Origin: Rhodospirillaceae bacterium
GTDB lineage: Bacteria > Pseudomonadota > Alphaproteobacteria > SP197
Direction: 5' to 3'
DNA: 64,000 bases
NCBI GenBank assembly: GCA_002722885.1
Contig: PBNE01000011.1
Span: forward strand, 2,336-66,335
The notes below the pieces were generated by a model. The model did no database searches and was not told where the DNA came from. It saw only the letters and a list, made by a program, of their open reading frames with translations. Positions within the stretch are counted from its first letter, which is position 1. The number at the start of each line of letters is the position of its first letter. This document shows positions 1-64,000 of the stretch, in pieces. Made by a program: the position numbers and the translations under genes.

Positions 1-1
1 G

Positions 2-160
2 CTTGCCGCCCATGTTCGGGTTTCGGGCGCGGCGCTGGAGAACGGTCTGCTCCACATCGATCTCGTCCGCGAGGTGCCCGAGGCGCTCAAGCCCCGCACC
101 ATCGCCATCCGCTCCGGCTCCGCCTCGAAGCAAATCGAGGCCGAAAAGCGGGCTGCGTAA
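2..160 (+). CDS. small heat-shock protein (Hsp20/alpha-crystallin family), C-terminal part; 5' end lies outside the window
   Basis: Frame 2 reads [52 protein letters not shown] with TAA at 158-160. The ENGLLxIDLxREIPE tail is typical of IbpA-like sHSPs. It is absent from the ORF track because there is no start codon in the window. A hairpin terminator follows. Confidence 0.7.
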
Positions 161-191
161 GGGCCATCTGACAGCGAGTGACTGAACGGAG

Positions 192-224
192 AGAGCGTCG
201 GGCAAGAGCCCGGCGCTCTTTTTC
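192..224 (+). terminator. rho-independent terminator after the sHSP gene
   Basis: Stem AGAGCGTCGGGC (192-203), loop AAGA, stem GCCCGGCGCTCT (208-219) with one G-T wobble, followed by TTTTT. Confidence 0.6.
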
Positions 225-229
225 GCATC

Positions 230-496
230 TTGATACGAAGAACAACGAATCCTATCTATCCCGCACGTGGTGATTTGTGCCGACCGGCTTTCGGCCACGT
301 TAAAGAACTCGCTAAAAGGTGGCGGCGGGTTCTCCACTGGGTCTTTACGGACAGCGTCACGCCGGACGATCTCGTCCGTGAGACCCGGGGCTGGGTCGAC
401 CAGGGTGCCAGTATCCTGGGCGGATGCTGCGGTCTGGGCCCCGAACACGTCAACGCACTGCGCGCTGCGCTTCCCTTCATGACACCGGCCGCCTGA
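230..496 (+). pseudogene. C-terminal remnant of a homocysteine S-methyltransferase paralog
   Basis: From about nt 329 the ORF reads HWVFTDSVTPDDLVRETRGWVDQGASILGGCCGLGPEHVNALRAAL. This parallels the C-terminus of the full-length neighbour (HWNFVDIIEPSDLVERAKQWVSQDVTILGGCCGLGPDHIRALDAA). The N-terminal approx 250 aa of the family are missing. Confidence 0.6.
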
Positions 497-508: not shown

Positions 509-1444
509 ATGCCCGCCTGGAAAGACAAGCTCGACAGGGGTGACATCCTCATCATCGACGGCGCCATGGGCACGGAACTTGAGCGGCGCGGTGCGGAAAT
601 GCACAAGCTCACCTGGGCCGGCGCCGCGCTGATCAAGCATCCCGAGATCATTGTCGACGCCCACGCCGACTACATCCATGCGGGCGCCGAAGTCATCATC
701 ACCAATACCTTCGGCGCCTCGCCGCACATGCTGAACGCCATGGGCTATGGCGACCGTGCAGCGGAGCTCATCAGCGGGGCAGTCGATCTCGCCAAACGTG
801 CGCGGGACAAGACCGGCAGGGATGTCGCGATCGCAGGGTCGATTTCCACCATGGCGGCGGGAGGCGACCTTGCGGACCCCGGAAACCGCCACTCCGACGA
901 AGAGATCGAAGACAGCATGAACCTGATGGCCCGCGCCCTGGCCGATGGCGGCTGCGACATGATCGCCCTGGAGATGATGCAGGACACCATACGTGCCGCC
1001 ACTGCGCTTGAAGCCGCCAAGGGCACGGGCCTGCCGGTCTGGCTCGGCCTGACCTGCGCCCGCAGCAAAGACGGGTCAGAACTCGTCGCCTTCGATTACC
1101 CCGATATCCGGTTCGACGACGTGGTCGATGCCCTCATCCCGATCGGCCCCGATGTCGTCAGCGTCATGCATAGCGACGTCGACGTGACCTCGGTCGCGCT
1201 AGAGCGGGTCAAGCGTGATTGGTCTGGCCCGCTCGGCACCTATCCCGAAGCCGGCTATTTCGAGATGCCGCACTGGAACTTTGTCGACATCATCGAACCC
1301 TCCGATCTGGTCGAACGCGCGAAACAATGGGTCTCACAGGATGTCACTATACTTGGTGGCTGCTGCGGCCTTGGCCCCGACCACATTCGCGCGCTTGACG
1401 CCGCCCGTCCCCAACTTGAAGCCGCCCGAGGAGTAGGCCCATGA
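509..1444 (+). CDS. homocysteine S-methyltransferase family protein
   Basis: 311-aa ORF. N-terminal DGAMGTELERRG motif, internal NTFGA, and a C-terminal GGCCG zinc-ligand motif, at the normal length for the family. Confidence 0.9.
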   Translation: MPAWKDKLDRGDILIIDGAMGTELERRGAEMHKLTWAGAALIKHPEIIVDAHADYIHAGAEVIITNTFGASPHMLNAMGYGDRAAELISGAVDLAKRARDKTGRDVAIAGSISTMAAGGDLADPGNRHSDEEIEDSMNLMARALADGGCDMIALEMMQDTIRAATALEAAKGTGLPVWLGLTCARSKDGSELVAFDYPDIRFDDVVDALIPIGPDVVSVMHSDVDVTSVALERVKRDWSGPLGTYPEAGYFEMPHWNFVDIIEPSDLVERAKQWVSQDVTILGGCCGLGPDHIRALDAARPQLEAARGVGP

Positions 1445-1830
1445 GCCGTCATCAGAAGATCTCGTTCACCGGGTCGCAGGGCGTGGCCCTGGCCGCACGG
1501 CTCGATCTGCCTGTCGGTCCGAATCCTTATGACTTTCTGCTGGGCGGCCTCGGAGCCTGCACCTCCATGCCCCTGCGCATGTAAACCGAACGCAAGCAGT
1601 GGCCGCTCGACAAGGTCACGGTCACGCTCTCTCACGCCAAGGTCCACGCCGACGATTGCGCCGAATGCGAATCCACGCTCGGCAAGGTCGACATCATCGA
1701 CCACACCATCACGCTCGACGGCGATCTCGACGATGACTAGCGCCGGCGCCTGATGGAGTTTGCCGAACGCTACCCCGTTAACCAGAACCTGACGACCGAA
1801 AACATCATCCGCGACACACTGGGTGATTGA
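1441..1830 (+). pseudogene. remnant of a bifunctional alpha/beta-hydrolase/OsmC-family gene, with an internal deletion and two in-frame stops
   Basis: The ATG at 1441 overlaps the upstream stop (ATGA). Translation: MSRHQKISFTGSQGVALAARLDLPVGP | NPYDFLLGGLGACTSMPLRM*TERKQWPLDKV...LDDD*RRRLMEFAERYPVNQNL. TAA at 1582-1584 and TAG at 1738-1740 are both in frame. Confidence 0.75.
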
Positions 1831-2024
1831 TGGGCTAACAATCTGTGCGACCCCGGTCGATTGCCGGGAGAGTCGGAAAATCGGCCAGCGCGGATGTTTG
1901 GAAACGCATCATGACGTCTCGGATGGCGTCGGGCGGCTCAATTCACCACGTCGCAGCCCGAACCGGTCGCCGTCCCGACCGCTTTCGAAAGCGCATGGTC
2001 CCTGTCCCGGCACTGGAAGTCCTC

Positions 2025-2306
2025 CTAGACATGCGTGCCACCGATATCGGTCGCGTTGTCGCAGATCGTCTGAACATGGCTACCGCAGATCATGTGGCCT
2101 TTGCAGGTCACGTCCCATGAGTCATCCGATGCCGATGTCGTGGTGCAGTTGCCGGCATCTTCACCGTCACCGCAAGTCAGGGTGATGATCGTGTCATCGC
2201 ACTGGAAGGTCAGATCATCGGCCCGGACTTCCTGCAACAGCCAAAAGTTGCGGGCAGCCACGGCACACAAGCTCGGCCAGCGAAACACGGTTCTTGCCAT
2301 CGTCAT
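2025..2306 (-). CDS. hypothetical small Cys-rich, possibly secreted protein
   Basis: 93-aa ORF whose ATG (2306) lies 1 nt after the dinB stop (2308-2310). It has a hydrophobic N-terminus and then 7 Cys. I recognise no homology. Confidence 0.35.
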   Translation of the reverse strand: MTMARTVFRWPSLCAVAARNFWLLQEVRADDLTFQCDDTIITLTCGDGEDAGNCTTTSASDDSWDVTCKGHMICGSHVQTICDNATDIGGTHV

Positions 2307-2307
2307 T

Positions 2308-6391: not shown

Positions 6392-7476
6392 TCACGGATG
6401 GCAAGCCAGATACGCAGTTTCGCGCCGGGTCATCACAAACAACACCACGGCGATTCCGATCCGGTTGATGAGATAGGCCAGTGCAGCGCCGATCAGGCCG
6501 TAGGTCAGGATGCCCAGGGCTGAGAGCGCGAGGTTGAGATTGCTCCCACCACCAGCACCCGCGACGCCGACTTGGTCTGGCCAAGCATGAACAGCGTACT
6601 GCCGGAAACGAGCGAGATGGCATGGGCGATGCGCCTGCCAAAACCGCACGTGGGGGATCAGGTTCACGAGAGCCAGCACAATGGCCGCGTGATAGAGGCC
6701 GGCCTCCTCCCGACCCAGGAGCATGGTGATCAGGATGACATCGCCGCCGACCACGAGAAGTCGGGCCAAAGCGCCGATCGCCATGGGCGCAGAGACACCG
6801 ACCCACTCACCAATCAGAACCTCGAGCCTGTCACGTCACACCACACCTGCGCGCCAGACGTAGCCGATCTGAAGCGCCACGGCGATCACCATGGCGGGTC
6901 TGACCGCAGCGAGCCTCTCTTCGGCATGCATCTCGGTCAGCTTGCCTGCTGCTATGGCTGCGATACCCAGGGCCAGCAGGTCCCGCACGCTGGCCTGTGC
7001 GACGGTTCCCAGCAGCACGCGCCCATGGGCCCGCAGCACGCCGGCCAGCAAAAGCCCCAGAGAGATCAGGGTACCAGCCAGATCGCATGGATCAGAGCTT
7101 TATGGCTGTGTGTGTCGTCCGAAAGCATCGCAACGCCGTAAACTGTTGCGCCGGTTGCCGCGCCGAGGACCAGCGTCGACAGGGCTGTCGTCAGGACAAA
7201 GCCGTTCAGAGTGCCAAGCCGGCCGGCTTTTCGGTAGCGGGGCAGCAAACGCACGGCGTCCTGATTGAACCCCAGACCTGCAATTAGGGTGAGAATGCGG
7301 ATCACGTGAAAGGCGAAGGCAAAGACACCGAACTCTTCGAGACCCATCCATCGGGCAAACAGCAGGGCCAGTAGGGTGGAGGCCGCAAAATTCCCGATGC
7401 ATCCTGGCAGGGCGACAACGGTTCGCCGTCGCAGTTCTGCACTGTTGTATTTAAGGTTGTGCTGTTCGCTGCTCAT
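6392..7476 (-). pseudogene. polysaccharide/O-antigen flippase (Wzx/MOP-type), frameshifted
   Basis: Three consecutive hydrophobic ORF pieces in different frames (7066-7476, 6836-7051, 6392-6784). The third contains GREEAGLYHAA, typical of polysaccharide-biosynthesis flippases. Confidence 0.55.
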
Positions 7477-7706
7477 CGTGCCCGGGCATGTTGTCGGGAG
7501 CTAAGGTCTTGGATGGTGACGCCACCATGCGCTGTGACGAGCGAGCAACGCACAGACTGTGGTGTCTGCCTCTGCTTCGGGCTATCAATCGAGTTCCGCA
7601 GAGAAAGGCCGTTGCCTTGTCCATGAAGCGTGATGATTTCACCGTCGGCAGCCGCGCCCCCTAGTACGCGTCGGCCGTCTATCACCGCGAAAACGAGGAT
7701 TGGGTA

Positions 7707-8414
7707 GTGCTGACGAAAGGTTTCGCGCAACCGGATTACTCCTGTCTCTACGACGATGAGACCGAGACATTTGAATCGCTCGACGTCGCCGGCAAGGATG
7801 TGGCGCAGATTTGCTGCAACAATGCCCGGGAACTGCTCTCCGTACGCAACATGGGTGCCGCTCGCTGCGTCGGCTTCGATCAGTCGGCCGAGTTTTTGAA
7901 GCAGAGTGAAGAGCTGGCGGCGATTACCAATCAGGAACTCGAGCTCGTCTGCGGTGATTTCTACAAAATCGACGAACGTTTCGACGGTACGTTCGATATC
8001 GTCATCATCACCATCGGCGTCTTCGGCTGGATGCCGGATCTTGCCGCCTTCACGGAGATTCCTGTGTGGCTGCTCAAGCCGGTCGGACACATCATGATCC
8101 ACGAAGAGCATCCGATCGTGAACATGTTCGATCCCGTTGTTGAAAAGCCGTTCGAGCCCTATTTCGCCTACTTCCGTGATCAGCTGCTTCAGGAAAAGGG
8201 CGCGATTATTTATGACGGCAGCACAGCCGACCCCGAGATCAATCACTGGTGGTTCTTCCACAACCTGGCCGACATCATGAACAGCCTGATCGGGACAGGG
8301 CCGCAGATCCGCCGCTACGATAAATATCCGCGCAACATCAGCACCACGACCTATGACCTCTTCCAGAACCATACGGTCAAGACGCCGATGAGTTACCTTC
8401 TGGTCGCACAGTAG
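7707..8414 (+). CDS. class I SAM-dependent methyltransferase, with a possibly N-terminally interrupted reading frame
   Basis: Methyltransferase motif I region (VAQICCNNARELL...CVGFDQS) and post-I/II motifs (DIVIITIGVFGWMPD). The same frame is open upstream to an ATG at 7623 apart from one TAG at 7662-7664. Confidence 0.75.
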   Translation: MLTKGFAQPDYSCLYDDETETFESLDVAGKDVAQICCNNARELLSVRNMGAARCVGFDQSAEFLKQSEELAAITNQELELVCGDFYKIDERFDGTFDIVIITIGVFGWMPDLAAFTEIPVWLLKPVGHIMIHEEHPIVNMFDPVVEKPFEPYFAYFRDQLLQEKGAIIYDGSTADPEINHWWFFHNLADIMNSLIGTGPQIRRYDKYPRNISTTTYDLFQNHTVKTPMSYLLVAQ

Positions 8415-10905: not shown

Positions 10906-11684
10906 ATGTACGACAGCCTGCCTGAAAACAACCGTAAGTCGACCGTGTCTGTCGACAACGGCGAGGAGCCCAGGTTCCTTCAGATCGCGGCGCGCATCAG
11001 GTCTCTCATCACCGCAGGCGATCTTGAGGCACACACGGCACTGCGCTCGGAGCGCGTGCTCGCTGAGGAGCAGGGCGTTAGCCGGATGACGGCACGGCAC
11101 GCGCTTGAAGCTCGCGAAACCGAGGGACTGATCTACAGCGCAGATCGCCGCGGCCGCTTTCTGTCGTCGAAACGCCTGACCTACGATGTCAGCAACATGA
11201 TCAGTTTCGCGGCAGACGCCCGGTCGTGCGAAAAGGAGCTCGAGATCGAGGTCATCCATGCGAGTGGGGCCAGGGCCGATGCAATGGTCGCGAGGCATCT
11301 CGGCATCTGGCCTGGTGCGGCCGTGTTCGACTACCTGCGCCTGTTCCGGACCAATGGGTACACCATTTTTATCGAATCCGAGTATGTCGATGCATAGCGG
11401 TTTCCGGATTTTTTGGACCATGACCTTCGCCAGTCCACCACCGGTATCCTCGACGAACACTACGGAGCATCGGCCCGTACGGCGACATAGTCATACGGAT
11501 GCGCGGTGTGGATGCCCATGAGGCGGAGCTTCTGGGCCTGACCGCCAGCCATGCCGGTATCGAACTCGAACAGGTCATCCGTGATGGCGACAGCACCCCG
11601 TTCTGTCTGGACCGTCAGATCTGGCGCGGTGAGCTGGCGGAGTTTTCGGTCCGAGCCATCGTGACTCCGGAAGGAAGCCTATGA
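10906..11684 (+). pseudogene. GntR/HutC-family transcriptional regulator with an in-frame TAG and a frameshift
   Basis: Winged-helix part (LRSERVLAEEQGVSRMTARHALEARETEGLIYS) followed by a UTRA-like part. TAG at 11395-11397 in frame, then a frame change near 11480-11490 (the continuation is the ORF at 11499-11684). Confidence 0.75.
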
Positions 11685-11844: not shown

Positions 11845-12957
11845 ATGAACAAAGTGTAAAAGTTGTTGTCAGGAGCAGCCGTCGCGGCTGTGATGACATC
11901 CGCCTCGGCCGCGCAGGCCGATTGCGGTGAGGTTTCGATCACCGAGATGAACTGGGCGTCGTCCCGGATCATCACCGAGGTCTCCAAGTTCCTCATGGAA
12001 CAGGGTTGCGGCTGCACCGTTGAAAAGGTGCCGTCGGCGACCGTGAGCTCGGTCGCGTCGCTGGCTGAAAATGCCGAGCCCCACATCGTGACCGAACTCT
12101 GGCTGAACTCGACCGGCGACGTCTATGCCGAGCTCGAAGCTGCCGGCAAGGTCTTGCATCTGGCCGACGTTTTCGATCCCTGTGGGGTCGAGGGCTGGCG
12201 GATTTTCGCCTATCTGGCGGAGTCGAATCCGGAGCTCACCACCATCGCCAATCCTGAGCTGGTTGGCGGCCGTTTCAACAACTGCCCGGACGGCTGGGGT
12301 TGCCGCAACGTGAACGACAACATCATCAACGCACTGGGCATGCGTGACACCATGGAAATCTTCGATCACGGCTCGGGTGAGACACTCGGCACGTCGATCG
12401 CCGTGGCCTACGAGGACGAGTCCCCGTGGTTCGGCTACTACTGGGCACCGACGGCGAACTCACCGATCATGCTGATGTATGAGGCGTTCTCGGCCCTGGA
12501 TTCGCTGATCCGGACCGGCATGCAGGATCTTCAGAAGGAGCTGCACAAGACCATCGTGTTCATCACGCATGATCTCGATGAAGCGCTGAAGCTTGCCGAT
12601 CATCTGGTGATTCCCAAGGACGGCTACATCATGCAGCAGGGCGAACCGCAGCATATCCTACTCTATCCCGCGGATTCCTAAATTGAGGACTTCGTCAGCG
12701 ACATCAATCGCGCGCGGGTGCTGCGGGTGCGTCCGATCATGATTCCGCTCGACGGCGGAACGGTGCCGGAGGGCGCGCATGGCGAGGTCGATTGTGACGA
12801 CACGCTGGAAAGCATGATCGCGCGGTCGGGCGCCGATACCTCGCATTCTTATGTCGTGACCCAGGGCGGCAGCCCAGTCGGAACGCCCGAGATGACCAAT
12901 CTCGTTCGTGCCCTGGTGCCGCGCGTTGCATCGGAAGCGGGCGCCAGAATGTACTAA
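11845..12957 (+). pseudogene. chimeric remnant: glycine-betaine-type binding protein (ProX-like) fused in frame to the C-terminal part of the ATPase (ProV-like)
   Basis: MNKV*KLLSGAAVAAVMTSASAAQA signal-like start (TAA at 11857). ProX-like body runs to ...FGYYWAPTAN, then SPIMLMYEAFSALDSLIRTGMQ...KTIVFITHDLDEALKL (ABC signature/Walker B region), then PADS*IEDFV (TAA at 12679) and a CBS-like tail to 12957. Confidence 0.75.
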
Positions 12958-15984: not shown

Positions 15985-16874
15985 GCACGGCCACGGTCAT
16001 CGAAGTCCATGGCATCCGCGTCACGGTCGAGCTCGACGGTGATGCTGTCCGATGTGCACCGGCGCCCGACATGAACCCTTATCCCGTGGTGGGTGATCAC
16101 GTGGCAGTGGAGGCCGGCGCCAACGACGGTGATCCTCCCGTGATCACTGAAGTTCTGCACCGCCGCACGACCCTGGCACGGCTACGCCAGGACAACAGCC
16201 GCCGCAGCCGTGATGGCGCACAGGAGCATGTGCTGGCCGCCAATGTTGATCTCGCTGTCATTGTGGCCGCCATCGCCCGGCCGCCGTTCCATCCCCGGTT
16301 TATCGACCGCTACATGGTTCTGGCGCAGCGCGGCGGGCTAGATGTTGCGGTAGCGCTCAACAAGGCGGATCTGGACGAGCCGCTGCCCGATCTCACGCTC
16401 TACCGGGATCTGGTCGCGGATATTGTGAGCGTGTCAGCCAAGACCGGTGAGGGGCTTGGCGATCTGCGACGCCTGATTGGCGACAAGACCGTGATCTTCA
16501 CAGGCCACAGCGGGGTCGGGAAGTCCTCGCTAGTCAACGCGCTGAACGCTGAAATCGATGCGGCGGTGGGAGAGGTCGGCGGCAAGCGGGGGCAGGGTCG
16601 CCACACCACATCGCGGTCATCGCTCTACAAGCTGGATGACAGCACGGCTGTGATCGACACACCAGGTATCCGCTCGCTCTCGCTGGCAGGCATTCCTGCC
16701 GACGAGCTGGGCGATCTCTTCCCGGAACTCGAAGGGTTCGCCGAAGGCTGCCGTTTTCGTGACTGCACCCACAACCACGAGCCCGGCTGTGCCGTGAAAA
16801 CGGCGGTCGAAGAGGGCGAGATCCCGTTTGTCCGGTACGAGACTTACCTTCGTCTGCTCCACGAAGACACCTGA
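15981..16874 (+). CDS. rsgA: ribosome small-subunit-dependent GTPase A
   Basis: NKADL, GHSGVGKSSLVNAL and the zinc motif CRFRDCTHNHEPGCAV. The start overlaps the upstream stop. Confidence 0.88.
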   Translation: MSTATVIEVHGIRVTVELDGDAVRCAPAPDMNPYPVVGDHVAVEAGANDGDPPVITEVLHRRTTLARLRQDNSRRSRDGAQEHVLAANVDLAVIVAAIARPPFHPRFIDRYMVLAQRGGLDVAVALNKADLDEPLPDLTLYRDLVADIVSVSAKTGEGLGDLRRLIGDKTVIFTGHSGVGKSSLVNALNAEIDAAVGEVGGKRGQGRHTTSRSSLYKLDDSTAVIDTPGIRSLSLAGIPADELGDLFPELEGFAEGCRFRDCTHNHEPGCAVKTAVEEGEIPFVRYETYLRLLHEDT

Positions 16875-16875
16875 G

Positions 16876-17166
16876 GTCTTTCGTTTGCGGATCCGCGCTC
16901 GGGGTATGTGTCTTGCGACGGCGACGAGCCGGCTGCTCAACATCTTTGTGGCGATGTCGTTCCTGTGGCTTCTGGACGTTGCGGGCACCGGTACGACGTT
17001 CCTGATCTTTGCCGGGGCCTGTCTGATGGCTCTCGTATTCTCGTGGTTCAAGGTGCCGGAGAAAAAGGGGCGGTCACTGGCGCAGATCGAAGCGAATCTT
17101 CTGGCCGGCCGGCCCGTACGCCGGCTCGGCGACGATTGGATCGCAGACGCGCTCCCGATCTACTGA
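16876..17166 (+). pseudogene. C-terminal stub of a sugar-porter-type MFS transporter
   Basis: RIRARGMCLATATSRLLNIFVAMSFLWLL...TFLIFAGACLMALVFSWFKVPEKKGRSLAQIE matches the last two TMs plus the PETKGRSLEEIE tail of sugar porters. Nothing corresponding to the first approx 400 aa is present. Confidence 0.55.
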
Positions 17167-18663: not shown

Positions 18664-19023
18664 ATGACGCGAACTCGCCCCAGAGTGCTCTTGGTCGAAG
18701 AGACGCCGCCGCTGGCCCGTGTCAATCAGGAGTACCTGCGTTTTGGGGATATCGACCTTGAAACATTGGAAAACGGCGAAGACGCATTCGCCGCCATCGA
18801 GCGTGACGAACCCGATGCCGTGCTGCTTGATCTGCGCCTGCCGGACATGGCTGGGCTCGACATCCTGCGCTGGATACGCCAGCGGGACCTTTTAAGCTAG
18901 GTCGTCATCATCACGGCCCATTGCTCGGTCAGCACCGCTGTGGAGGCCATGCGCGACGGCGCCTATGACTTTCTGGTCAAACCGTTCACGAGAGCGCCAA
19001 TCCATATGGACAAGCCATCATAA
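18664..19023 (+). pseudogene. stub of an NtrC/LuxO-type response regulator (receiver domain only, in-frame TAG)
   Basis: RVLLVEE...AVLLDLRLPDMAGLDILRWIRQRDLLS*VVIITAHCSVSTAVEAMRDGAYDFLVKPF with TAG at 18898-18900. The frame ends at 19021-19023, and no AAA+ or DNA-binding domain follows. Confidence 0.7.
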
Positions 19024-19040
19024 GCCAAGCGATCGATCCG

Positions 19041-19346
19041 ATGGCGGAGGCCATACAGGCACTTCTCGATGTCGCAGCGAGTGGCCGGCCGGGCCGGGGT
19101 CTCGTGGCTGTGAAATACCTAAAGCGTGTCGACCGACATATCGCAGCCTTCCTAGCCATTCGGCGCATCATCGACAGCATTGGCAGCGGTCGCGTGCTGC
19201 TACAGACCGTGGCGGCCTCCATTGGGCGTTCGCTCGAAGACGAGGAGCGGTTCACAGAGTTTCAGAAGCAGCACCCGGGTATGTTCAAGCGAGTTCTCGA
19301 TGATCTGAAGCGGCGACGCAAAAGCACTCGGATCACTAGGGCCTGA
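19041..19346 (+). pseudogene. N-terminal-domain fragment of a phage T7-like single-subunit RNA polymerase
   Basis: VKYLKRVDRHIAAFLAIRRIIDSIGSGRVLLQTVAASIGRSLEDEERFTEFQKQHPGMFKRVLDDLKRR aligns by eye with T7 RNAP ...FLQEIKPEAVAYITIKTTLACLTSADNTTVQAVASAIGRAIEDEARFGRIRDLEAKHFKKNVEEQLNKR (reference from memory). Only about 100 of roughly 880 aa are present. Confidence 0.65.
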
Positions 19347-21114: not shown

Positions 21115-21766
21115 ATGGGTCAATGGAACGCCTTTATCAGCGCAAGTTCCCGTTTGACCGCAGGCGGCTCGACAGTTTGCAATCTTTGGCCCCGACCTGC
21201 CGCTGAGTGACATCAAGACGGCAATGCTTGATGATTTCGTGCCCGCGATGATTTTGAAGGGGAACCGCCCGGCTACAATCAATCGAAAACTGCGCGCTCT
21301 TTCGACGGCCATGACCGTTGCGATTGATCGCGATGGGCTCTGCCGGAAGCCGATGTTTCCTTGGCAGTAGGGGCCTTCCGGCCGCTCAAAGCTCTTCAGC
21401 CCCGAGGAAAAATCACTAATCATCACCCGCGCGAGAGAGACTGGTCAGAACATGTTAGCCGACATGATCGTGCTCTACATCGACACCGGCTATAGGTTCA
21501 ATGAGCTGCGGAGCTGCCTGAACGATGAAGCTCACATCAACCTGAACCTCGATCCGCCGACGATGACCATTTATAAAACCAAGAATTGGGAGAAAGTCGG
21601 GCCACGCACGGGGCCCCTGACACAACGCTGCGTCGAGATCCTGCGCGATCGCGTGGCTACCACGCCGAAAGGCGCGAAAATGTTTACCCTCTCGAGAAGA
21701 CAGATGCACCATCGGTGGAATGTGATCCGAAAGGATTTGGAACGCGCCGAGGATCCCGAGAGGTAG
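21115..21766 (+). pseudogene. tyrosine recombinase/phage integrase: frameshifted, with an in-frame TAG, and lacking the catalytic C-terminal half
   Basis: ATG at 21115 with GGGAGAA upstream, then a frame change near 21175. FGPDLPLSDIKTAMLDDFV...NRPATINRKLRALSTAM (core-binding domain), TAG at 21368-21370, then LFSPEEKSLII...LYIDTGYRFNELRSC (first catalytic Arg box). It stops at 21764-21766, before the HxxR/Y motifs. Confidence 0.75.
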
Positions 21767-37945: not shown

Positions 37946-38194
37946 ATGAAAACGAAGATTCTGTCAGCCGCATTGGGTGTGGCGATGACCTTGGGCTTAG
38001 GCGTTGGCGAAGCGCAAGCTGCCAAGACCCTGGTGTACTGCTCCGAAGGCAGTCCCGAAGGCTTCAATCCGTCGCTCTACACCGCTGGTACGACCTTCGA
38101 TGCGTCGTCGCGGCAGGTCTTCAACAAGCTGGTCGAGTTCGATCGCGGCATCGGGACGGAGCGACACCAGTGTCAGGTCTTCCTTGGCCTCTAG
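37946..38194 (+). pseudogene. N-terminal stub of a dipeptide/oligopeptide ABC substrate-binding protein (DppA-like)
   Basis: Signal peptide plus AKTLVYCSEGSPEGFNPSLYTAGTTFDASSRQVFNKLVEF, the typical DppA mature N-terminus. Similarity is lost after about aa 68 and the ORF ends at aa 82. Confidence 0.7.
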
Positions 38195-43416: not shown

Positions 43417-43423
43417 GGCCGCC

Positions 43424-44527
43424 GTGACCCATTCTATCGAACATATCACACTGCCCACGGCCAGCCTTGGGACCGAGCGCAACGTCACGGTCCACCGCTT
43501 CGGGACACCGGGTGCGCGGCCCAAGGCTTATCTGCACGCGGCCCTCCATGCTCAGGAGCTGCCGGGCATCGTGGTCCTTGAACATCTCCAGAAGCGCCTT
43601 CACGAAGCCGACGCAGAAGGAAAGATCATCGGCGAGATCGCGCTGGTGCCGTTCGCCAATCCCATTGGGCTGTCCCAGCAGATCATGATGGAGGCCCAGG
43701 GGCGCTACGACCTCGATACCAACCGCAACTACAATCGTGGCTTCCCTGACCTTATCGGCGAGGTCGTCGAGGTCATTGCGGACAGCCTGACGGATGATGG
43801 GGACGAAAATGTCGCGGTGATCCGAACGGCTATAGGTACGGCTCTTGAAGGTCGCAAGGACGCCCGCGAGGCCGACGTTCTGAAGCTGCGATTGCTGCAG
43901 CTTTCCCACGACGCGGATCTTGTTCTCGATCTCCATTCGGCCTGGGAAGCTTTGCTGCACCTCTTTGTCACCGATGTGAACTGGCCCGATGCTGATGACC
44001 TCGCTCGGCAAATCGGTGCCGAGGTTGTGCTGGTCGACCGTGGCAACCGTATGATGACCTTCAAGTCGGCTCATGCCCTGCTCTGGAAGGAGGTGGCCGC
44101 CCGTTTCCCCGATCATCCCGTGCCGCCGGGGAGCCTGACCGCCGTGGTCGAACTGCGCGGGCAGCGCGATGTCGATGACCATCTCACGCGGCCCGACGCG
44201 GACAACCTCTATCACTGGCTCCAGCGGCGCGGCGTCATTGCGGGATCGCCCGGTCCGCTCCCTGAGGCCCGTTGCGAGCCGCGTTCGGTGGTAGGACTGC
44301 ACCGCCTCACCGCCGAAGCGGGCGGCATTCTCGTTTACCACCGGCAGCTCGGGCACGCCGTACGTGAGGGCGAGACCTTCTGCCACATCCTCGACCCCGA
44401 AACGGCCACGCGGACGCCGGTCACCGCGCCCATCGACGGTCTGCTCTATGCCCGTCGCAGCCACCGTTTCGCGCGCAAGGGGCAGTACTTTTGCGCCATT
44501 GCAGGTGACACGCCGATCGAGGGTTAG
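43424..44527 (+). CDS. succinylglutamate desuccinylase/aspartoacylase (AstE/AspA, DoeB-like) family deacylase, tandem paralog
   Basis: 367 aa. GTG start with GAGG upstream. AYLHAALHAQELPG and DLHSAWEA. Collinear with the preceding gene. Confidence 0.85.
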   Translation: MTHSIEHITLPTASLGTERNVTVHRFGTPGARPKAYLHAALHAQELPGIVVLEHLQKRLHEADAEGKIIGEIALVPFANPIGLSQQIMMEAQGRYDLDTNRNYNRGFPDLIGEVVEVIADSLTDDGDENVAVIRTAIGTALEGRKDAREADVLKLRLLQLSHDADLVLDLHSAWEALLHLFVTDVNWPDADDLARQIGAEVVLVDRGNRMMTFKSAHALLWKEVAARFPDHPVPPGSLTAVVELRGQRDVDDHLTRPDADNLYHWLQRRGVIAGSPGPLPEARCEPRSVVGLHRLTAEAGGILVYHRQLGHAVREGETFCHILDPETATRTPVTAPIDGLLYARRSHRFARKGQYFCAIAGDTPIEG

Positions 44528-45293
44528 CGGCCTGCCACTCGGACTGGGCGGGCGCGAGTCCCGGAAGGTGACGTTCGACCAGGGCGCCAAGCTCGCCGTT
44601 CTGAAGCAGCGTGGCGATGGCGTCGCCGATTTCTTCGAGCAACATCGGGTCGTCCGCGACAGCGAAGGCGAGCCCGCCGCCGTCTGTCAGCAGATTGATA
44701 GTCAGCTCGGCGATGGCGAGGCCGACTCCCATCGGGATTTCGGCAAGCACCAGAGGAAGCGTCAGGCCGTGACGAAACACAGCGTCGATGCTTCCGGCAT
44801 GAAGCGAGAAATAGAGCTCCTCATCGTCGGGATAACGGCGGATCCGGTCAGGCGGCAGGTTGGCTTCGAGCTAATGTGCGTGCGGCGAACCCCACAGCGC
44901 CCCCACGGTCAATGTCGAGAGGTCGACGTCGTCGGACATCACTGTGAGACCTTCCACGACCACAAATCGCGACGGGGTCTCAAGATAGACCGGCGCAGCC
45001 TAAAGGCCCAGGTGGCCGGCGGTCAGGCCGGAGAGTCCGGAGAAGACCACGTCGAACCTGCCCGACTGCAGACCCGTCGCAAGATCCTGCTAGGCCACGA
45101 CAATCACCTCGCAACGACGGTCGAGCTCGGCACACAGCGCATCGGTAAGGTCGCGTTCCAACCCGACGACCTCGCCGGAGGCATCGAGCATGGTGAAGTG
45201 CGGTTTGGCGGCATCGGTCGCCAGAACAAGCACGTCGTCCGCCCGCACGAGGTCGCAGATCAGCAGGCAGGCCAGAAGAACAAGCACACGCAT
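44421..45293 (-). pseudogene. family-3 (amino-acid type) ABC substrate-binding protein with three in-frame TAG codons
   Basis: MRVLVLLACLLICDLVRADDVLVLATDAAKPHFTML...VIVVA*QDLATGLQSGRFDVVFSGLS...GL*AAPVYLE...AH*LEANLP.... TAGs at 45090-45092, 45000-45002 and 44871-44873 are all in one frame. The 3' end runs into the convergent deacylase gene. Confidence 0.75.
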
Positions 45294-46152: not shown

Positions 46153-46848
46153 ATGGATAGAGTGAGCGAGCAAGCAACAGACTCCCGCAAGCTGCGCCGC
46201 GTCATCGGTACCGGCGTCGCCGGCAATGTGATGGAATGGTACGACTTTGCGGTTTACGGCTACCTCGCTGCGATCATCGGAACGCAGTTCTTCCTTTCCG
46301 ATGATCCCGTTTCTTCGATCATTGCGTCTTATGGTGCCTTCGCCGCGGGCTTCCTGTCCTGACCGCTGGGTGGTGTGATCTTCGGCCATATCGGCGACAG
46401 CATTGGGCACAAGCGGGTGCTGAAGGTTTCGGTCGTCATGGTGGGCCTGGCGACCTTTGCCATCGGCATTCTGCCGATCTATGAGCAGATCGGCGTTGCC
46501 GCGCCTGCGCTGCTGATTGCCATACGTATCTTCCAGGGGCTCAGCGTCGGCGGGGAGTACTCAGGTTCCGTGACCTTTGTTGTGGGACACTCACCGCCAA
46601 ACCGGCGTGCCTTCCTGACGAGCTGGATGGGAATCGGCTCATTCCTGGGATTCATCATCGGCGCTGCGGCCGGTGCTCATCTGCCGGCGGTGTTCGAGGA
46701 ATCCCAGGTCGACAGCTGGGCCTGGCGGCTGCCGTTCCTGTTTAGCATCGTGATCGCGATCGGTGGCATGCTGGTGCGCCGCACGATTGATGATCTGCTC
46801 GCCGCCGAAGAAAAGGATGAGGTCGAAGGTCTGCCGATCGTCGCCTAG
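46153..46848 (+). pseudogene. MFS transporter (ProP/ShiA-like) with an in-frame TGA, truncated after about 6 TMs
   Basis: GNVMEWYDFAVYGYLAA...AAGFLS*PLGGVIFGHIGDSIGHKR with TGA at 46360-46362 where homologs have the Arg of RPLGG. The ORF ends at 46848 where the convergent gene begins. Confidence 0.75.
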
Positions 46849-48102: not shown

Positions 48103-48366
48103 TTACTCCACGGCCTTCTGGGCATCACCGAAGCGCACGATGCGTTCGATCGTGTCGGAAAGATCATCGTCGGTGATGCGGGGGTTGATGGTGCAGAAAC
48201 GCAGGCAGGTGCGCCCCTTAAGTTCGGTTGATGTCACGAAGGCGAAACCGTCGTCGACCAGGGCGTCAACCGCGCTGTAACCAAGCGCCCGCATCTCCTC
48301 GGGCGTGAGTTCAAGTCGTGCTGGATCGTGTGGCATGTGCCGGAGGTAACGCGGCCACGATCGCAT
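48103..48366 (-). pseudogene. remnant of a group II PLP-dependent (aromatic-amino-acid-type) decarboxylase with an internal deletion
   Basis: N-terminal-type segment LELTPEEMRALGYSAVDALVDD joined directly to the C-terminal-type segment GFAFVTSTELKGRTCLRFCTINPRITDDDLSDTIERI. The whole PLP-binding core is missing. Confidence 0.5.
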
Positions 48367-49083: not shown

Positions 49084-50073
49084 ATGGGGGACCATGCGCG
49101 CCTTTTTGACCTGATCTCGGCCGCCCTGCTGGCCGGCTGTATCAACAGTGACGAGTACGAGCCGCATCGTGCGATCAATCTGGAGTTCAACGGCGGGCCT
49201 GTGAACGGTGCGAACTATTTCGCCACACTGAATATCTGTAACCTCGTGAACCGTTATTCCGACGGCAAATACAATTGCGCCAAGCGTGCGTCGCCGGGAC
49301 CTGTCGCCAACGTTGATCAGGTTCTTGCCGGTGCGGTCGAGTTCGGAATTTCCCGTTCGGACTACGTCCTTTCGGCTGTGCAAGGCACCGGAATCTGGGA
49401 GAACGACCCGCAACCGTCATTGCTGCCCCTTTCACGGTTCATAACGATACAGTCACGATGGTCGTGCGTGACGATTCGGATATCCGCAGCCTTGCGGACC
49501 TGGAAGGCCGCGTCGTCAATCTCGGCATTCCCGTTCGGTGCATCAGCTCAATGCCCTGGAACTCCTGGAGCTGGCCGGGATCGATGCCAAGGACGGCATT
49601 GAACCCCGGGGTTGTTGCAGGCGGAGGCTGGCCGGGCCCTGGCAGACGGAGAGATTGATGCGTTCTTTGCCACAGTGGCGACACCGGATCCGTCGATTGA
49701 ACGTGCTGCCGATCTCACCGACATCCGGCTCATTCCCTTGGATTCTCCTGAAATCCGCCAGTTGGTGGCCGATACGCCGTATTACGCGCGCACGTACGTT
49801 CACACCGGTTACTAACGGCCGTTTGATCCGCTCGACGGAGCGTTCTGAACGTATTCGTTGTCAAGCTATGGCTACGACGCGACTGTCATCGCCAGTTCGA
49901 GCCTGCCCGACGAAATCGTTAGTGACGTCACAGGCTATGTGTTCCGCCACCTCAACGAACTCCGTGCGGATCACCCATTCTTCAACCATCTCGATTATCA
50001 CGAAATGCGCGATGAATTGATGGCGCCACTTCACCCCGGCGCCGGGGGCGAGTGGGCTATGGTCGTTCCCTAG
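49084..50073 (+). pseudogene. decayed paralog of the TAXI-family TRAP solute receptor
   Basis: Four ORF pieces in different frames (49084-, 49458-, 49612-, 49858-50073) are collinear with the intact gene at 50295-51257. For example YFATLNICNLVNRYSDGKYNC matches YQVALQVCDLINTHSDGEYNC, and EIDAFFATVATPDPSIERAA matches KVDAFFYTVGNPAAAIEEPA. Confidence 0.7.
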
Positions 50074-51300: not shown

Positions 51301-51362
51301 GCTTCGTTTCGCAGATCCGCGGAAAGCCTGCAGGTCGTTCGGGAATGCAGGGGGATAATGCC

Positions 51363-53785: not shown

Positions 53786-54208
53786 ATGTTCAAGACGATC
53801 GTTCTCGCCATTGATCTGGAGGAAGAGGCCACGTGGACCAAGGCGTTGGCCCAGGCCGTCAAGATGGCTGAAGGCGGTGAGCTTCATCTTCTGGCTGTTG
53901 TGCCGGATTTCGGCTTCTCGGTCGTTGGCCAGTAATTCGACAGCGGTGCCGAAAAAAGGATGCTGGAGGATGCGGGCAGCAGACTCCTTGCCTTCGCCGA
54001 AGAGCATGTGCCGGCTGACCGCCTGGGTTCGTGCTTTGTGGGCCACGGCTCCATCCACGGTGAGATCCTGCGCATGTCTGAACAGATCAAGGCGGATCTC
54101 ATCGTCATGGCCTCGCACAAACCCGCTGTGCGTGACTATTTGTTGGGTCCGAATGCGGCCCATGTCATGCGACACGCATCCGTGAGTGTGCTCATCATTC
54201 GCAACTGA
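53786..54208 (+). pseudogene. universal stress protein (UspA family) with an in-frame TAA
   Basis: MFKTIVLAIDLEEE...LHLLAVVPDFGFSVVGQ*FDSGAEKRML...IVMASHKPAVRDYLLGPNAAHVMRHASVSVLIIR with TAA at 53933-53935. Both halves are in the same frame. Confidence 0.7.
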
Positions 54209-59563: not shown

Positions 59564-59566
59564 GGC

Positions 59567-60511: not shown

Positions 60512-60580
60512 CCCAGCGCAATCGGGCTATGGATCGCTGTGTATGTCAACCGCCTCAGGACCAAACTTCCCCGTAATTTG

Positions 60581-62617
60581 TCAGTTGAGATCACGTGGTT
60601 CGCAGTGGTCCCACGTCCGGGCAAAGACGCGGTGGGCACCTTCGAAGGCTTCGCAGTCGGCCCAGAAGAGCCAATCGTCTTTGGTTCCGGTCAGCGTGGA
60701 GCGCGTTTCGGTCCTGATGTCAAACCCGGTCGACGGCCGCTGAAAGCGGTAGGTCCAGTGCACAGTCATACGGGCCGAGGTCGGGTCTCCTTCGGTAATA
60801 TCGAAATGCTGCTCCATGCGGGAGCCGAAAACCCAGTCAATGGCGGGATCATGCACGAGGCCGCTGTCGTTGATCACGGTCATGCGGGTTTCGCCCGTAG
60901 TGTCGTCATGGCGGACCAGACGCTGGTAGTCACCGGGTTCCAGCGTCACGGTTTCGAAGGGCGCGGCACTCTCCGGCGGACCGAAGGGGTGCAACGCCGA
61001 GTCATCGTCGCGTGGCGTGCGCACCGGCAGGTCGAGTGTGCTTGAACCAGTAGACAGGATGACCGTGACAGGCTCCGGTGAGGGCCAGAACAGTGGCCAT
61101 AGTTGGTTGGAGAGCGAGACCCGCAGGCGGTGGCCTGCGGGGATTTGCTGGGCCATGTCGTTGATCTGCAGGCGCACGCGATAGTTCCGGCCCGGCTCCA
61201 GAGCTTCCGGGTGCTCGTGGCTGTCCCGATGGGTCAGGTTGAGCGCCCCGTAGCTGATGCGGGTCGAGGTGCCGTCGGGTGCAACATTGCACAGCCGTGC
61301 GATTAGGAAGGCGTTGGGCCGGTCGGCACTCACATCGAGGCTCAGGGCCGGCGCCCCCATCAGCTCCATGGCCTCTGCCATCGGTTCCGTTTCAAAGACA
61401 ACCGAACAGCCGTCGTCTTCACGCTGGTCGGCGGGGTGGTCGGGAACCAGACCATACTGGCACCATTCACCCTGCCGCTGTCCCATGGTCATGGGGCTGT
61501 GGATCGGAGCCTTGCCGGATTCGCCGGCCGTCGACGACAGGCTGCCGTCATTGTTGAGGCACAGGGTTTTCTGCTGAATGTTCGGCGAGGGCCAGCACGG
61601 CTCTGCGACCCAGCGGCCTAGGTGCTCTGAACGCCACAACGCCGGGGGCGCGCTGTCCTGCATCCAGACACGGTATTCCGGTTCATCCATGATCCCGGTG
61701 TCGATGTCCTTCAGCCAGTAATCCCACCAGCGCAGGGTTTCCTGCAGAAAGCCGATACGCGGGCCCGGCTCGGCAAAATGCGGGTACTTGTGCGCCCAGG
61801 GGCCGACCAGGCCCTTCTTGGGACAGGAGAGACCCGCCAGCATGCGGGGAATGGCGTTGGTGTAGCCATCGGCCCAGCCGCCGACCGCATAGACCGCCGC
61901 TTCGATGTCGGCATAGTTTTCGATGACGGAGCCGTGTTTCCATTGTGCATCGCGGCGCTGATGGCCGAGCCACTTGATCATCCAGGGGTCATTCGCGTCC
62001 AGACGCTGCAGCCAGAGCTCGCGCCAATTGTCGACCAACGCCGGATCGGGCGGACGGGTGTTCATGCCGAACATCGTCGAGCCCCACGACAAATTGTCGT
62101 TGATCATCACGCCGCCCATGTAGTGTATGTCGTCGCTGTAGCGGTCATCTGTCGATGCGATGGTCACGATCGCCTTGAGCTCCGGTGGGCGTCGCGCGGC
62201 GACCTGCAGCCCGTTAAAGCCGCCCCAGGAGATGCCGATCATGCCGCACTTGCCCGTACACCAGGGCTGTGACGCGATCCAGGCTAGGATTTCCAGGGCG
62301 TCGTCCTGTTCTGACTTCAGGTACTCGTCTTCCAGAATGCCGTCGGAATCGCCGGAACCGCGTATATCGACACGGACACAGGCATAACCGTTGCCGGCGT
62401 AGTAGGGGTGGACCAGCAGGTCACGGTCGGCCGTGCTGTCCCGCTTGCGATAGGGCAGGAACTCCAGGATGGCGGGGACAGGATCATCCTCGGCGTCGTC
62501 CGGCAACCAGATTCGTGCGGCGAGTTTCACGCCATCGGGCATCGTGATCCACGTGTTCTCGATTTCACGGGCCATACGTGGGTACTGAGTCACCACGTCG
62601 ATGTCATCGGCAGCCAT
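60581..62617 (-). CDS. CocE/NonD family hydrolase (X-Pro dipeptidyl-peptidase S15 fold)
   Basis: 678 aa. LEFLPYRKRD, GISWGG nucleophile motif, and a C-terminal beta-sandwich domain of the expected length. Confidence 0.88.
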   Translation of the reverse strand: MAADDIDVVTQYPRMAREIENTWITMPDGVKLAARIWLPDDAEDDPVPAILEFLPYRKRDSTADRDLLVHPYYAGNGYACVRVDIRGSGDSDGILEDEYLKSEQDDALEILAWIASQPWCTGKCGMIGISWGGFNGLQVAARRPPELKAIVTIASTDDRYSDDIHYMGGVMINDNLSWGSTMFGMNTRPPDPALVDNWRELWLQRLDANDPWMIKWLGHQRRDAQWKHGSVIENYADIEAAVYAVGGWADGYTNAIPRMLAGLSCPKKGLVGPWAHKYPHFAEPGPRIGFLQETLRWWDYWLKDIDTGIMDEPEYRVWMQDSAPPALWRSEHLGRWVAEPCWPSPNIQQKTLCLNNDGSLSSTAGESGKAPIHSPMTMGQRQGEWCQYGLVPDHPADQREDDGCSVVFETEPMAEAMELMGAPALSLDVSADRPNAFLIARLCNVAPDGTSTRISYGALNLTHRDSHEHPEALEPGRNYRVRLQINDMAQQIPAGHRLRVSLSNQLWPLFWPSPEPVTVILSTGSSTLDLPVRTPRDDDSALHPFGPPESAAPFETVTLEPGDYQRLVRHDDTTGETRMTVINDSGLVHDPAIDWVFGSRMEQHFDITEGDPTSARMTVHWTYRFQRPSTGFDIRTETRSTLTGTKDDWLFWADCEAFEGAHRVFARTWDHCEPRDLN

Positions 62618-62682
62618 GGTTGTCTCCCTCCAATGGGTTGCCCCACGCTATCGGTGCTCGGTTGCACGGACAACCTTGTGGG

Positions 62683-64000
62683 TCAGTGACCGCGTTCGCC
62701 GAACAGGAGCGTGATGTTGGTCCGGCGGTTCTGGAAGCCGTCAAGAAAGTTGAACCGGTCGGACATATGGAACAGATTCGAGTGGAAGAGGACGGCTCGG
62801 TTGGCGCGGTGCGGAATCGTGACGGCTTCAGCGTCTTCGAGAAAGTTGGCGATCCGCGCTTTCACGTCCGGTGCGTTCTTGCGCAGGTTGATGTTGTTCC
62901 AGTCCCAGTCCAGCGGCTGTTCCTTGGCGTAGACCACGAGGCCGCCGTGGTCGCTGTCGAGTTTGGCGTCGTCCTCGGTGATCCAGAAGTTGAAGGTCAC
63001 GGAGGCATCATCGGTATGCGCTTCCACGCCGGCGCCGCTGTTCCGATGTCGGTAGACCCACATGTTATGCAGGTGGCGCGATCCCAGAACCCTCAGGCAT
63101 GGCTCGCTGAAGCTCTTCGGCGATCTAGTAGAGCAGACTGCAGTGGAACCCGTCGGCCATCTAGGAGGTCACGTAGCCTGTCGCGTTATGCCCGAAGAAG
63201 ATCGTAGAATCGTGACAGTAGCGCCGCAGGTTGTTGAGCGCCTCCTGCGATAGGAACTCATCAATGACGGTGACCGAGGTCGGGCTCGCCTGATAGCCTT
63301 GTTCGATATCGCGATAGTCGTTGGCCCGTCCAATGGCATGGGAGCAGGCTATGGTGTCATTGATCGCAACGGCTCGTTCATGCAGTCCGGCCATGGAGTC
63401 GATGGCGGGCCTTCGAGGATATGAGGCAGTGTGGCGGCGAATCCTTCACTGTCATGATACGTCACCGCGCCATCCACCAAGGCTGCGGGCTCGTGCCAGG
63501 TGTGATCGAGGCGACCGACATCGACCATGTGTCGCAAATGTAGCGCGAGGTCGTCCAGCCGTGCGCGGCATGTTCTGAGCCGCGCCCATGAATTGACCAG
63601 TCACCGGCGTTGAAGGCCGACTGGTCGCGCCCAGTTCCTCGGTTCTTGCTGAACAGATCCCCAAAGGTCGCGCGGGCGGCTTCGTAGTCCTGAAGACCCA
63701 GCTGCGTGATTCCGATGTTGTTAATGGCTTTGTCGAACGAGGGGTCGCGCTGGAGCGCATTTTGATAGTGGCCAAGAGCTTGTGAAAATTGTCCTCCGGT
63801 TTCATCAATCGTGCCGGCCAGAAAATTGGTTTTCGCCGTTGCGCCGTCGCAGGCCAGCAGGGGCTCGAGGATCGTGCGTCCCTCGTCCCGTTCGCCGCGT
63901 GCACACAGCCGCCGCACCAGGTTGATCCGTGCGGGGATATGTCCGGGTTGGATTGTGAGGGCCTGGTTCAATGCCTGTTCGGAACCCTTGATGTCGGACT
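62683..64000 (-). pseudogene. TPR-repeat / 2OG-Fe(II)-oxygenase-like protein with multiple frameshifts and in-frame stops; 5' end outside the window
   Basis: TPR-like repeats (ORF 63462-63971) and a middle part in two other frames. TAGs at 63161-63163 and 63125-63127, and a frame change before HLHNMWVYRHRNSGAGVEAHTDDASVTFNFWIT...NRAVLFHSNLFHMSD (62683-63063). Confidence 0.6.

Follow-up and report, generated by a model that had tools for sequence, protein, structure and literature searches.

We examined a 64-kb stretch of chromosome (hereafter the window) from a Rhodospirillaceae bacterium of the Alphaproteobacteria (GenBank assembly GCA_002722885.1, contig PBNE01000011.1, positions 2,336 to 66,335 of the forward strand) and found that about 30% of its gene-like units are dead, with some 20–21 degraded genes beside approximately 45–46 intact ones. 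In related genomes, genes of the corresponding neighbourhoods are variously intact, in decay or gone, and the window thus appears to show a genome partway through its reduction, one not accompanied by the usual burst of jumping genes. We consider it likely that the window derives from an uncultured marine Rhodospirillales population in the course of reductive genome evolution under relaxed selection, a process that is independent of insertion sequences (IS) and extends across the clade.

Intact genes occupy 48.2 kb (75%) of the window, remnants of genes 11.0 kb and other sequence 4.8 kb. The pseudogene fraction is far above that of syntenic relatives (~89–95% coding by called genes) and above the 3–15% published for pelagic roseobacters, which have coding densities of 85–95% (PMC12661815; bioRxiv 10.1101/2021.01.15.426902). 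An original prediction, made from the sequence alone, had counted about 20 interrupted or truncated genes among about 68 units, close to the ~20–21 of ~66–67 obtained here. Eighteen of the 21 items that it listed are indeed truncated, frameshifted or nonsense-interrupted genes, with truncation points located against intact orthologues or profiles (tblastn, Pfam, PHROGs, PDB), while 2 are ambiguous and 1 is intact; as listed, 9 of the 18 rest on tblastn with syntenic orthologues and 9 on profile or PDB coordinates (Table 1). A small conserved hypothetical gene, hyp116, is an additional interrupted gene beyond those 21. The same prediction held that housekeeping genes had been spared and that losses fell on regulators, transporters, envelope functions and paralogs, and both statements agree with our data: EttA, RsgA, DinB and PyrC are intact, and the losses fall on the classes named. 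The dead genes are scattered over all 64 kb, interleaved with these four housekeeping genes.

Materials and methods

The window is a single stretch of chromosome with a GC content of 62%, in which no tRNA genes were found; the labels L003–L132 denote the matching or related contigs and loci with which it was compared. Real and shadow frames were separated with a codon-usage model trained on long open reading frames (ORFs), and public gene calls and precomputed Pfam matches were mapped onto the window. Syntenic orthologues were taken from contigs encoding the closest homologues of EttA, an aminotransferase and a peptidase, and were then compared with the window by tblastn, while the remaining intervals were placed by profile coordinates (Pfam, NCBIfam or PHROGs) or by phmmer against the PDB. 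A scan of genome contigs with RsgA returned relatives of only ≤39% identity, the 8-mer patterns being too specific, and a scan of metagenome contigs with PyrC returned relatives of only ≤71% identity, which were of no use for synteny.

By exact sequence match, the proteins of the window are MBN35276–MBN35330 of an NCBI metagenome-assembled genome (MAG) with locus tags CMM46_, on a contig of 77,128 bp, and the same proteins occur in the Tara Oceans gene sets of station 124 (TARA_124 MIX) from the 0.22–3 and 0.45–0.8 µm fractions. The same DNA was present in contigs of several ENA, Logan and Tara assemblies produced by different assemblers (99.74–99.99% identity over 6–21 kb). These matching contigs fall into two haplotype groups, one near-identical to the window and the other differing by ~0.2%; the comparison of single-nucleotide polymorphism (SNP) densities was restricted to the part of the window covered by the latter. 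Our literature search found no paper describing the lineage of the window, nor anything under the accession of its sister MAG, GCA_014323865.1.

Authenticity of the lesions

Mis-assembly of mixed strains can be imagined to produce stops, frameshifts and deletions, and some of the assemblies are indeed of low coverage (3–4x by their contig names) with more than one strain present. However, at every lesion the bases are identical in the megahit, SPAdes, Tara-scaffold, Logan and NCBI MAG contigs, and the sole indel among the assemblies, a single T within an intergenic run (position 50097), lies outside every pseudogene. The ~0.2%-diverged haplotype has every one of the deletions and frameshifts and lacks just two of the stops, and homologous remnants are found in sister species. 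Given that independent assemblies and a second haplotype share the same lesions, we regard them as biological, and an origin in assembly or consensus error as extremely unlikely.

Reading of the in-frame stops as sense codons, which would leave the genes functional, might be suspected from the preponderance of in-frame stops over frameshifts among the interruptions, and from the family-3 solute-binding protein gene, whose only lesions are three TAG codons. Yet the 23 in-frame stops that we placed (13 TAG, 6 TGA and 4 TAA) comprise all three codons in the proportions of random nonsense mutation, for which codon usage predicts a single-base spectrum of 56–57% TAG, 18–25% TGA and 18–26% TAA, and no stop codon is unused as a terminator, the intact genes ending in TGA (31), TAG (11) or TAA (3). 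The residues aligned to the stops in orthologues are heterogeneous (Tyr, Gln, Trp, Arg, Glu and Pro), many of the interrupted genes also carry large deletions, and the SNP density of the remnants is neutral (see below). On the nonsense spectrum, the mixed residues and the use of all three terminators, we rejected stop-codon recoding, to which we assign next to no probability.

Loss of constraint and age of the lesions

Between the haplotypes, SNPs occur at 4.62 per kb in remnants, 3.67 per kb in other non-coding sequence and 1.95 per kb in intact genes (Fisher p = 5e-4). The remnant density is approximately that of synonymous sites in the intact genes, which hold 43 synonymous and 37 non-synonymous SNPs and in which synonymous sites make up about one-quarter of 48 kb. 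The remnants are evolving at the neutral rate, without constraint, and by tblastn the dead orthologues are 15–25 identity points more diverged than their live neighbours.

How long ago constraint was lost can be gauged roughly from the stops themselves. From codon usage, about 3% of random substitutions create a stop, and the stop load would then correspond, very roughly, to 4–7% neutral divergence in the remnants. Because this far exceeds the ~0.2% diversity of the population, most of the lesions are probably old and fixed, and dead DNA appears to be deleted slowly. The original prediction spoke of recently relaxed selection: relaxed selection is upheld by the real and shared lesions, the neutral remnants and the series of intact, decaying and collapsed states in sister genomes, whereas 'recently' suits only the few lesions that are still polymorphic.

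Decay is still running, since the population is polymorphic for two nonsense codons and a 1.85-kb deletion, and a homocysteine S-methyltransferase (HMT) paralog that is dead in the window is intact (308 aa) in one strain, L008. Position 38591, in the EctC-like paralog, reads TAG in the window and GAG in L003, L005 and L006, where the gene encodes an intact protein of 168 aa, and position 36117 lies in a TGA in the window and a TGG in L003 and L005. Strain L007 is without 1,851 bp (11158–13008) that hold the ProX-ProV remnant, the junction of this deletion lying between imperfect 9-mers, CGCGGC(C/A)GC. Three independent contigs (L009–L011) end exactly at 11157/11158, its left boundary; here it is strain-level structural variation, not repeats, that breaks assemblies.

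The neighbourhood in related genomes

EttA of the window had no cluster-mates at 90% identity; the nearest sequences, from Rhodospirillales and Alphaproteobacteria MAGs, were 85–94% identical, and those of named taxa (Ferrovibrio, Kiloniellales) only 77–78%. EttA, RsgA and an MFS protein group the window with L043, and L046 with L044, with L045 outside, and the related contigs measure 3.4, 3.75 and 5.5 Mb. In L046/L047, L128/L129, L045 and L130 the same neighbourhoods are intact, at the high coding density given above. In L044/L131, a 3.75-Mb contig, decay has taken a course of its own: it has a dead second HMT paralog, a dead hydrolase-OsmC gene, aldolase and sugar transporter, and fragments of RimB and TenA, while TPR560 and the universal stress protein (Usp) have been kept intact. 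The two tandem HMT genes have been lost reciprocally, as the window lineage (336–1444) killed the first and kept the second, whereas L044 (1846–3579) kept the first and killed the second with three stops and a frameshift.

The closest relative, L043/L132 (GCA_014323865.1; EttA 93% identical), has a collapsed region in which only stubs are left of MFS387, an ADP-forming CoA ligase, a double acyl-CoA dehydrogenase (its first 153 codons in L043), a GGDEF protein, a GST, a Rieske protein and an FMO, and from which the TPR gene has gone entirely. Several genes therefore line up across the relatives in three stages, namely intact, decaying and deleted.

Nature and cause of the decay

The process that we propose would begin with the loss of selective constraint on accessory genes such as transporter components, regulators, an O-antigen-type flippase, paralogs and some enzymes. 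Genes are then inactivated chiefly through single-base nonsense substitutions and 0.3–6 kb deletions, with fewer frameshifts and with at least one of the deletions lying between short imperfect direct repeats, and the remnants would drift neutrally for long before being deleted. Such decay is clade-wide, the sisters having each killed other genes within shared neighbourhoods and one of them having whole blocks already worn down to stubs, and it proceeds independently of IS. On this last point, the genes called on the 78-kb contig to which the window belongs, and those called in 43 kb of the long-contig relative (L044/L131), gave no match to a transposase family of Pfam, and no repeats were found within the window except one internal gene duplication. 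The earlier claim that IS elements are lacking is thus sound as regards transposases and repeated elements, but must be qualified by a decayed phage/integrase islet, which is the sole trace of a mobile element in the window.

Several observations weigh against reductive evolution of the whole genome. A single contig of the organism (64–78 kb) was examined, so any genome-wide rate is extrapolated, and it abounds in accessory genes for catabolism and transport, the kind that any lineage loses first. The GC content of the remnants has dropped little (60.7% versus 62.2%). Across the three genes tested in all (EttA, RsgA and MFS), a relative-rate comparison gave no clear acceleration in the window lineage, unlike what is seen in drift-dominated symbionts: unique amino-acid changes numbered 6 in the window, 11 in L043, 9 in L046 and 9 in L044 for EttA, and 7, 8, 2 and 4, respectively, for RsgA. 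Finally, the absence of IS is weaker evidence for the genome of the window, because short-read assemblies break at IS copies.

It may be, then, that the window is a flexible, accessory-rich region in which failed imports and redundant paralogs accumulate, the rest of the genome having only a few percent of pseudogenes. This would accommodate the unaccelerated core proteins, the seven consecutive intact genes just past the right end of the window, the presence of a foreign low-GC islet, and differences in gene content from L046, which has p450-TetR-abhydrolase where the window has an FMN oxidoreductase and the Wzx gene, and which lacks PhyH-GntR-ProXV. We nevertheless find a purely local explanation quite unlikely, as dead genes occur along all 64 kb among housekeeping genes, many of them are vertically inherited genes with intact syntenic orthologues rather than failed imports, and the same decay or collapse is seen in two sister genomes, at two separate regions of each. 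By extrapolation from this one contig, the pseudogene density of the window may hold genome-wide.

As for the cause of reductive evolution, early-stage obligate symbiosis with, or pathogenicity towards, a planktonic eukaryote has to be weighed, in which case the cells of the small fractions would be released or transmissive stages. Pseudogenes at ~30% and intact coding at 75% are within the range of recently host-restricted bacteria, losses in the pilus region, the O-antigen-type flippase, regulators and uptake systems would fit such a life, and a sister lineage is far more reduced. Recovery in the 0.22–3 and 0.45–0.8 µm fractions, however, points to small free cells; many transporters and sensors, an ECF sigma factor and broad catabolism have been retained; GC is still 62%; no IS burst was seen (although short-read contigs break at IS copies); and the core proteins are without acceleration. 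Host restriction therefore seems to us rather unlikely, if still worth keeping in mind. Given the plankton fractions, the metabolism that has been kept, the high GC content and the lack of acceleration in the core proteins, we incline to a planktonic lineage whose niche has narrowed and/or whose effective population size is low, rather than to an obligately host-restricted symbiont. Genome streamlining of the SAR11/Prochlorococcus type was set aside, the window having only 75% intact coding sequence, ~30% dead units and 62% GC.

A more specific proposal, which we make tentatively and hold to be possible rather than probable, is that a free-living pelagic clade is midway through IS-free genome reduction, with at least three sisters losing, independently of one another, different genes of shared syntenic neighbourhoods. 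If true, the clade would offer a natural time series from intact genes through nonsense-riddled full-length genes and internally deleted stubs to nothing, that is, the long-missing stage in the shrinkage of bacterioplankton genomes, and would permit direct tests of drift versus selection.

Comparison with known systems

Decay free of mobile elements has a precedent in the Polynucleobacter necessarius symbiont of Euplotes, which shows genome reduction and many pseudogenes, has a documented host and has a genome of ~1.6 Mb. The window lineage is like it in its IS-free decay by point mutations and deletions and in having close relatives that are free-living; unlike it, the window lineage has relatives of 3.4–5.5 Mb. 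Early host-restricted bacteria such as Sodalis glossinidius, Mycobacterium leprae and the anglerfish symbionts (PMC3091646, PMC6020299) are alike in their ~30% dead units and ~75% intact coding, in losses affecting transport, regulation and envelope, in long-kept remnants and in having relatives with larger intact gene sets. Indeed, the 'Ca. Enterovibrio' symbionts of anglerfish have ~30% pseudogenes, but transposases make up 28–31% of their coding sequences (PMC6020299). In the window lineage there is no such expansion of transposases or IS, GC is 62%, the core proteins are not visibly accelerated and recovery was from free-living plankton fractions.

Closer in habitat are the lineages of pelagic genome reduction, including CHUG, other pelagic roseobacters and early Prochlorococcus (bioRxiv 10.1101/2021.01.15.426902, PMC12661815, PMC10837832), which are likewise marine and planktonic and have lost accessory genes relative to larger-genome sisters; the same debate between drift and streamlining applies to the window lineage. 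In those lineages, however, the stage of decay is mostly no longer visible, whereas in the window lineage it is, at a pseudogene density several-fold above that of pelagic roseobacters. Subseafloor Thalassospira, from the same broad order (Rhodospirillales), have ~48 pseudogenes per genome (~1%), credited to relaxed selection and drift in isolated populations (PMC8406185), and the density in the window is more than 10-fold above theirs.

Genome reduction in the ocean is usually deduced from its end products, which are small and dense genomes with few pseudogenes, and both the route taken and the balance of drift and selection are disputed. In the window lineage and its relatives the intermediate stage can be observed directly, with high GC, no involvement of transposons, some lesions still segregating and sisters at earlier and later stages. 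Should the pseudogene density prove to be genome-wide, the clade could serve to measure rates of inactivation versus deletion, the mechanism of deletion (through short-repeat junctions), the succession of functional losses and the effective population size during reduction. Should the organism instead be host-associated, it would be a new marine symbiont lineage, IS-free and at an early stage. As regards annotation, our results show that gene stubs account for a substantial share of what such MAGs list as 'hypothetical proteins'.

Individual features of the window

Table 1 Degraded genes and other features placed in the window, with the start given in the original prediction where the feature was listed there
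Feature	Coordinates	Strand	Start in prediction	State and evidence
HMT paralog remnant	336..490	+	230	Last 52 of 307 codons; tblastn with HMT307 of L046, residues 255–306; Pfam S-methyl_trans 245–283 of 283
SAM-II (SAM_alpha) riboswitch	257..335	+		Rfam RF00521, 64.7 bits, E = 3e-12
Hydrolase-OsmC fusion remnant	1441..1815	+	1441	Residues 1–33 and 304–406 of the 411-aa L046 orthologue left (tblastn); ~270 codons deleted internally; in-frame TAA 1582 and TAG 1738; weak OsmC Pfam match
hyp116, small conserved hypothetical	1941..2288	-		Premature TAG (2025) at Gln88 of 116; tblastn with L046
Wzx-type flippase pseudogene	6392..7500	-	6392	Pfam Polysacc_synt 5–105 of 274 in frame A, 208–249 in frame B; in-frame TGA at 6836
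Methyltransferase	7617..8414	+	7623	TAG at codon 16 (7662; Trp in orthologue); tblastn with MT268 of L046, residues 1–263
GntR/UTRA (HutC-type) regulator	10906..11684	+	10906	Frameshift: GntR 4–63 and UTRA 4–56 in one frame, UTRA 92–138 of 141 in another
ProX-ProV chimeric remnant	11860..12957	+	11845	OpuAC 2–182 of 257; in-frame fusion to ProV tail; TAA at 12679
Sugar/MFS transporter remnant	16867..17133	+	16876	Last 89 of 447 codons; Sugar_tr 376–450 of 452; tblastn, residues 357–445
NtrC-type response regulator remnant	18676..19020	+	18664	Aligned only to residues 4–109 of the 470-aa L045 orthologue (tblastn); TAG at 18898, flanked by Response_reg 1–68 and 73–106
T7-type single-subunit RNA polymerase, N-terminal stub	18969..19346	+	19041	phrog_414, E = 1e-20, positions 36–146 of 816; Pfam RPOL_N match weak
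Tyrosine-integrase remnant	21158..21766	+	21115	phrog_1, E = 1.3e-6, positions 199–252 of 611; in-frame TAG at 21368; Phage_int_SAM_5 match weak
Prepilin peptidase, structurally intact	21813..22541	+	21777	A24_N_bact 1–82 of 84; Peptidase_A24 2–104 of 104
HD-GYP phosphodiesterase fragment	33548..33883	-	33535	HD_5 48–133 of 170; NCBIfam NosR-family response regulator/HD-GYP 223–315 of 422
Small ORF	35962..36291	+	35614 (to 36300)	In-frame TGA 36115–36117, TGG in L003 and L005
DppA stub	37946..38194	+	37946	phmmer against PDB: 5f1q_A residues 7–70 of 543, E = 4e-18
EctC-like cupin paralog	38232..38744	-	38232	One TAG, 38589–38591; Ectoine_synth 11–112 of 127 across the stop
Family-3 solute-binding protein	44421..45293	-	44421	Full length, three in-frame TAG; SBP_bac_3 1–130 of 132, E = 1.4e-14 across the stops
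MFS transporter pseudogene	46171..46845	+	46153	Aligned only to residues 2–226 of MFS423 of L128 (tblastn); MFS_1 48–167 of 347; TGA (46360) at Arg65
PLP-dependent decarboxylase remnant	48121..48336	-	48103	Residues 1–28 and 420–471 of 474 (tblastn with L128 and L130 orthologues)
TAXI-TRAP binding-protein paralog	49129..50070	+	49084	Full length; stops TGA 49600, TAA 49813 and TGA 49846; NMT1_3 match in pieces
Universal stress protein	53786..54208	+	53786	TAA at Tyr50, flanked by Usp 1–45 and 57–141
TPR + 2-oxoglutarate (2OG)-oxygenase-like gene	62689..64000	-	62683	Three frames, at least 5 stops; tblastn with the 560-aa TPR560 of L131; Pfam TPR and weak PhyH/2OG matches

At the left end of the window, the predicted HMT stub is a genuine truncated paralog, although positions 257–335 of the ORF then claimed are a SAM-II riboswitch. 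The riboswitch lies between HSP20 and the remnant, its 3′ end falling exactly at a rearrangement or deletion junction (335/336), so that in the haplotype of the window it is now upstream of the stub and of an intact homocysteine S-methyltransferase; it is present in L007 and absent from L008 (374 bp upstream of the intact HMT paralog). Compared with the intact L008 allele, the stub (336–496) has 5 differences in 160 positions (~3%), against 99.93% identity in the flanks, a contrast that points to recombination with a more distant lineage or else to prolonged neutral drift of the stub.

Remnants of the Wzx gene also occur in L044. The methyltransferase, listed originally as an N-terminal fragment, is ambiguous: the TAG at codon 16 is there, but the domain is complete downstream of it. 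With 55% identity to its orthologue, against 74–83% for neighbouring genes, and SNPs in a ratio of 3 non-synonymous to 1 synonymous, it is probably compromised or under relaxed constraint. The ProX-ProV remnant joins the N-terminal two-thirds of ProX to a C-terminal part of ProV that is 53% identical to an ABC ATPase of L130, and ProW has gone; at the sugar transporter remnant, a four-gene block of L046 (5.8 kb) is absent from the window.

The NtrC-type regulator has lost its AAA+ and HTH domains, and the pilus genes that follow it in L045 are absent from the window. Where relatives carry the rest of this regulator and a cluster resembling type IV pilus and type II secretion systems, the window has the low-GC islet (18901–21812; 52% GC, or 52–56% over 18–22 kb), which comprises the RNA polymerase stub, the integrase fragment, devoid of its C-terminal catalytic part, and an intact 474-aa aldehyde dehydrogenase. 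An apparently split aldehyde dehydrogenase in L012 and L014 proved to be a difference in gene calling, as there is no sequence variant at that place and the window has an intact copy. The prepilin peptidase beside the islet had been listed as truncated, but because both of its domains are complete it is no pseudogene by anatomy. Between haplotypes it shows 8 non-synonymous and 0 synonymous differences, and a GGDEF sensor (30508–32103) shows a ratio of 5 to 1; these may be intact-looking genes that are already free of constraint.

The interval 35614–36300, which the prediction had left undecided, is likewise ambiguous in our hands, as it has the polymorphic in-frame TGA but holds only a small ORF without a profile match. 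Part of this ORF (36118–36288) matches the C-terminal end of uncharacterised proteins of 175–226 aa (E = 2e-6 and 5e-5), none of which has Pfam domains. Searches of Pfam, NCBIfam and PHROGs gave no match for 35600–36300, 33887–34123, 63164–63445, 32111–32272 or, on the minus strand, 21097–21444.

Downstream, the DppA stub retains the signal peptide and ~42 mature residues of a protein of ~535 aa. This stub of 70 residues is the only DppA sequence of the window and lies 20 kb from dppBCDF (56651–60511, minus strand), which is intact and has no adjacent binding-protein gene either in the window or in L131. The EctC-like paralog is part of a cluster (38232–44527), conserved in relatives, that also encodes a tandem double EctC-like cupin protein (279 aa), a GCV_T-family protein, a Rieske oxygenase and two AstE/AspA-like deacylases, and that looks like a catabolic island for compatible solutes (ectoine-like or methylated amine).

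Among the remaining remnants, the C-terminal 197 codons of the MFS transporter and ~390 internal codons of the PLP-dependent decarboxylase have been deleted, the latter gene being intact in L128 and L130. The TAXI paralog aligns over residues 1–315 with the 315-aa orthologue of L129 at 58% identity, compared with 85% for the adjoining intact TAXI gene. The fused TRAP permease (51345–53774, plus strand) is annotated with 691 aa in the NCBI MAG and 809 aa in other assemblies. The Usp of L131 is intact at 140 aa, and the TPR/2OG gene, which runs off the end of the window, is completely absent in L132. Lastly, a 772-aa protein (27354–29672, plus strand) consists of two complete acyl-CoA dehydrogenase units, encoded by internal direct repeats that are 72–74% identical at a spacing of 1,155 bp.

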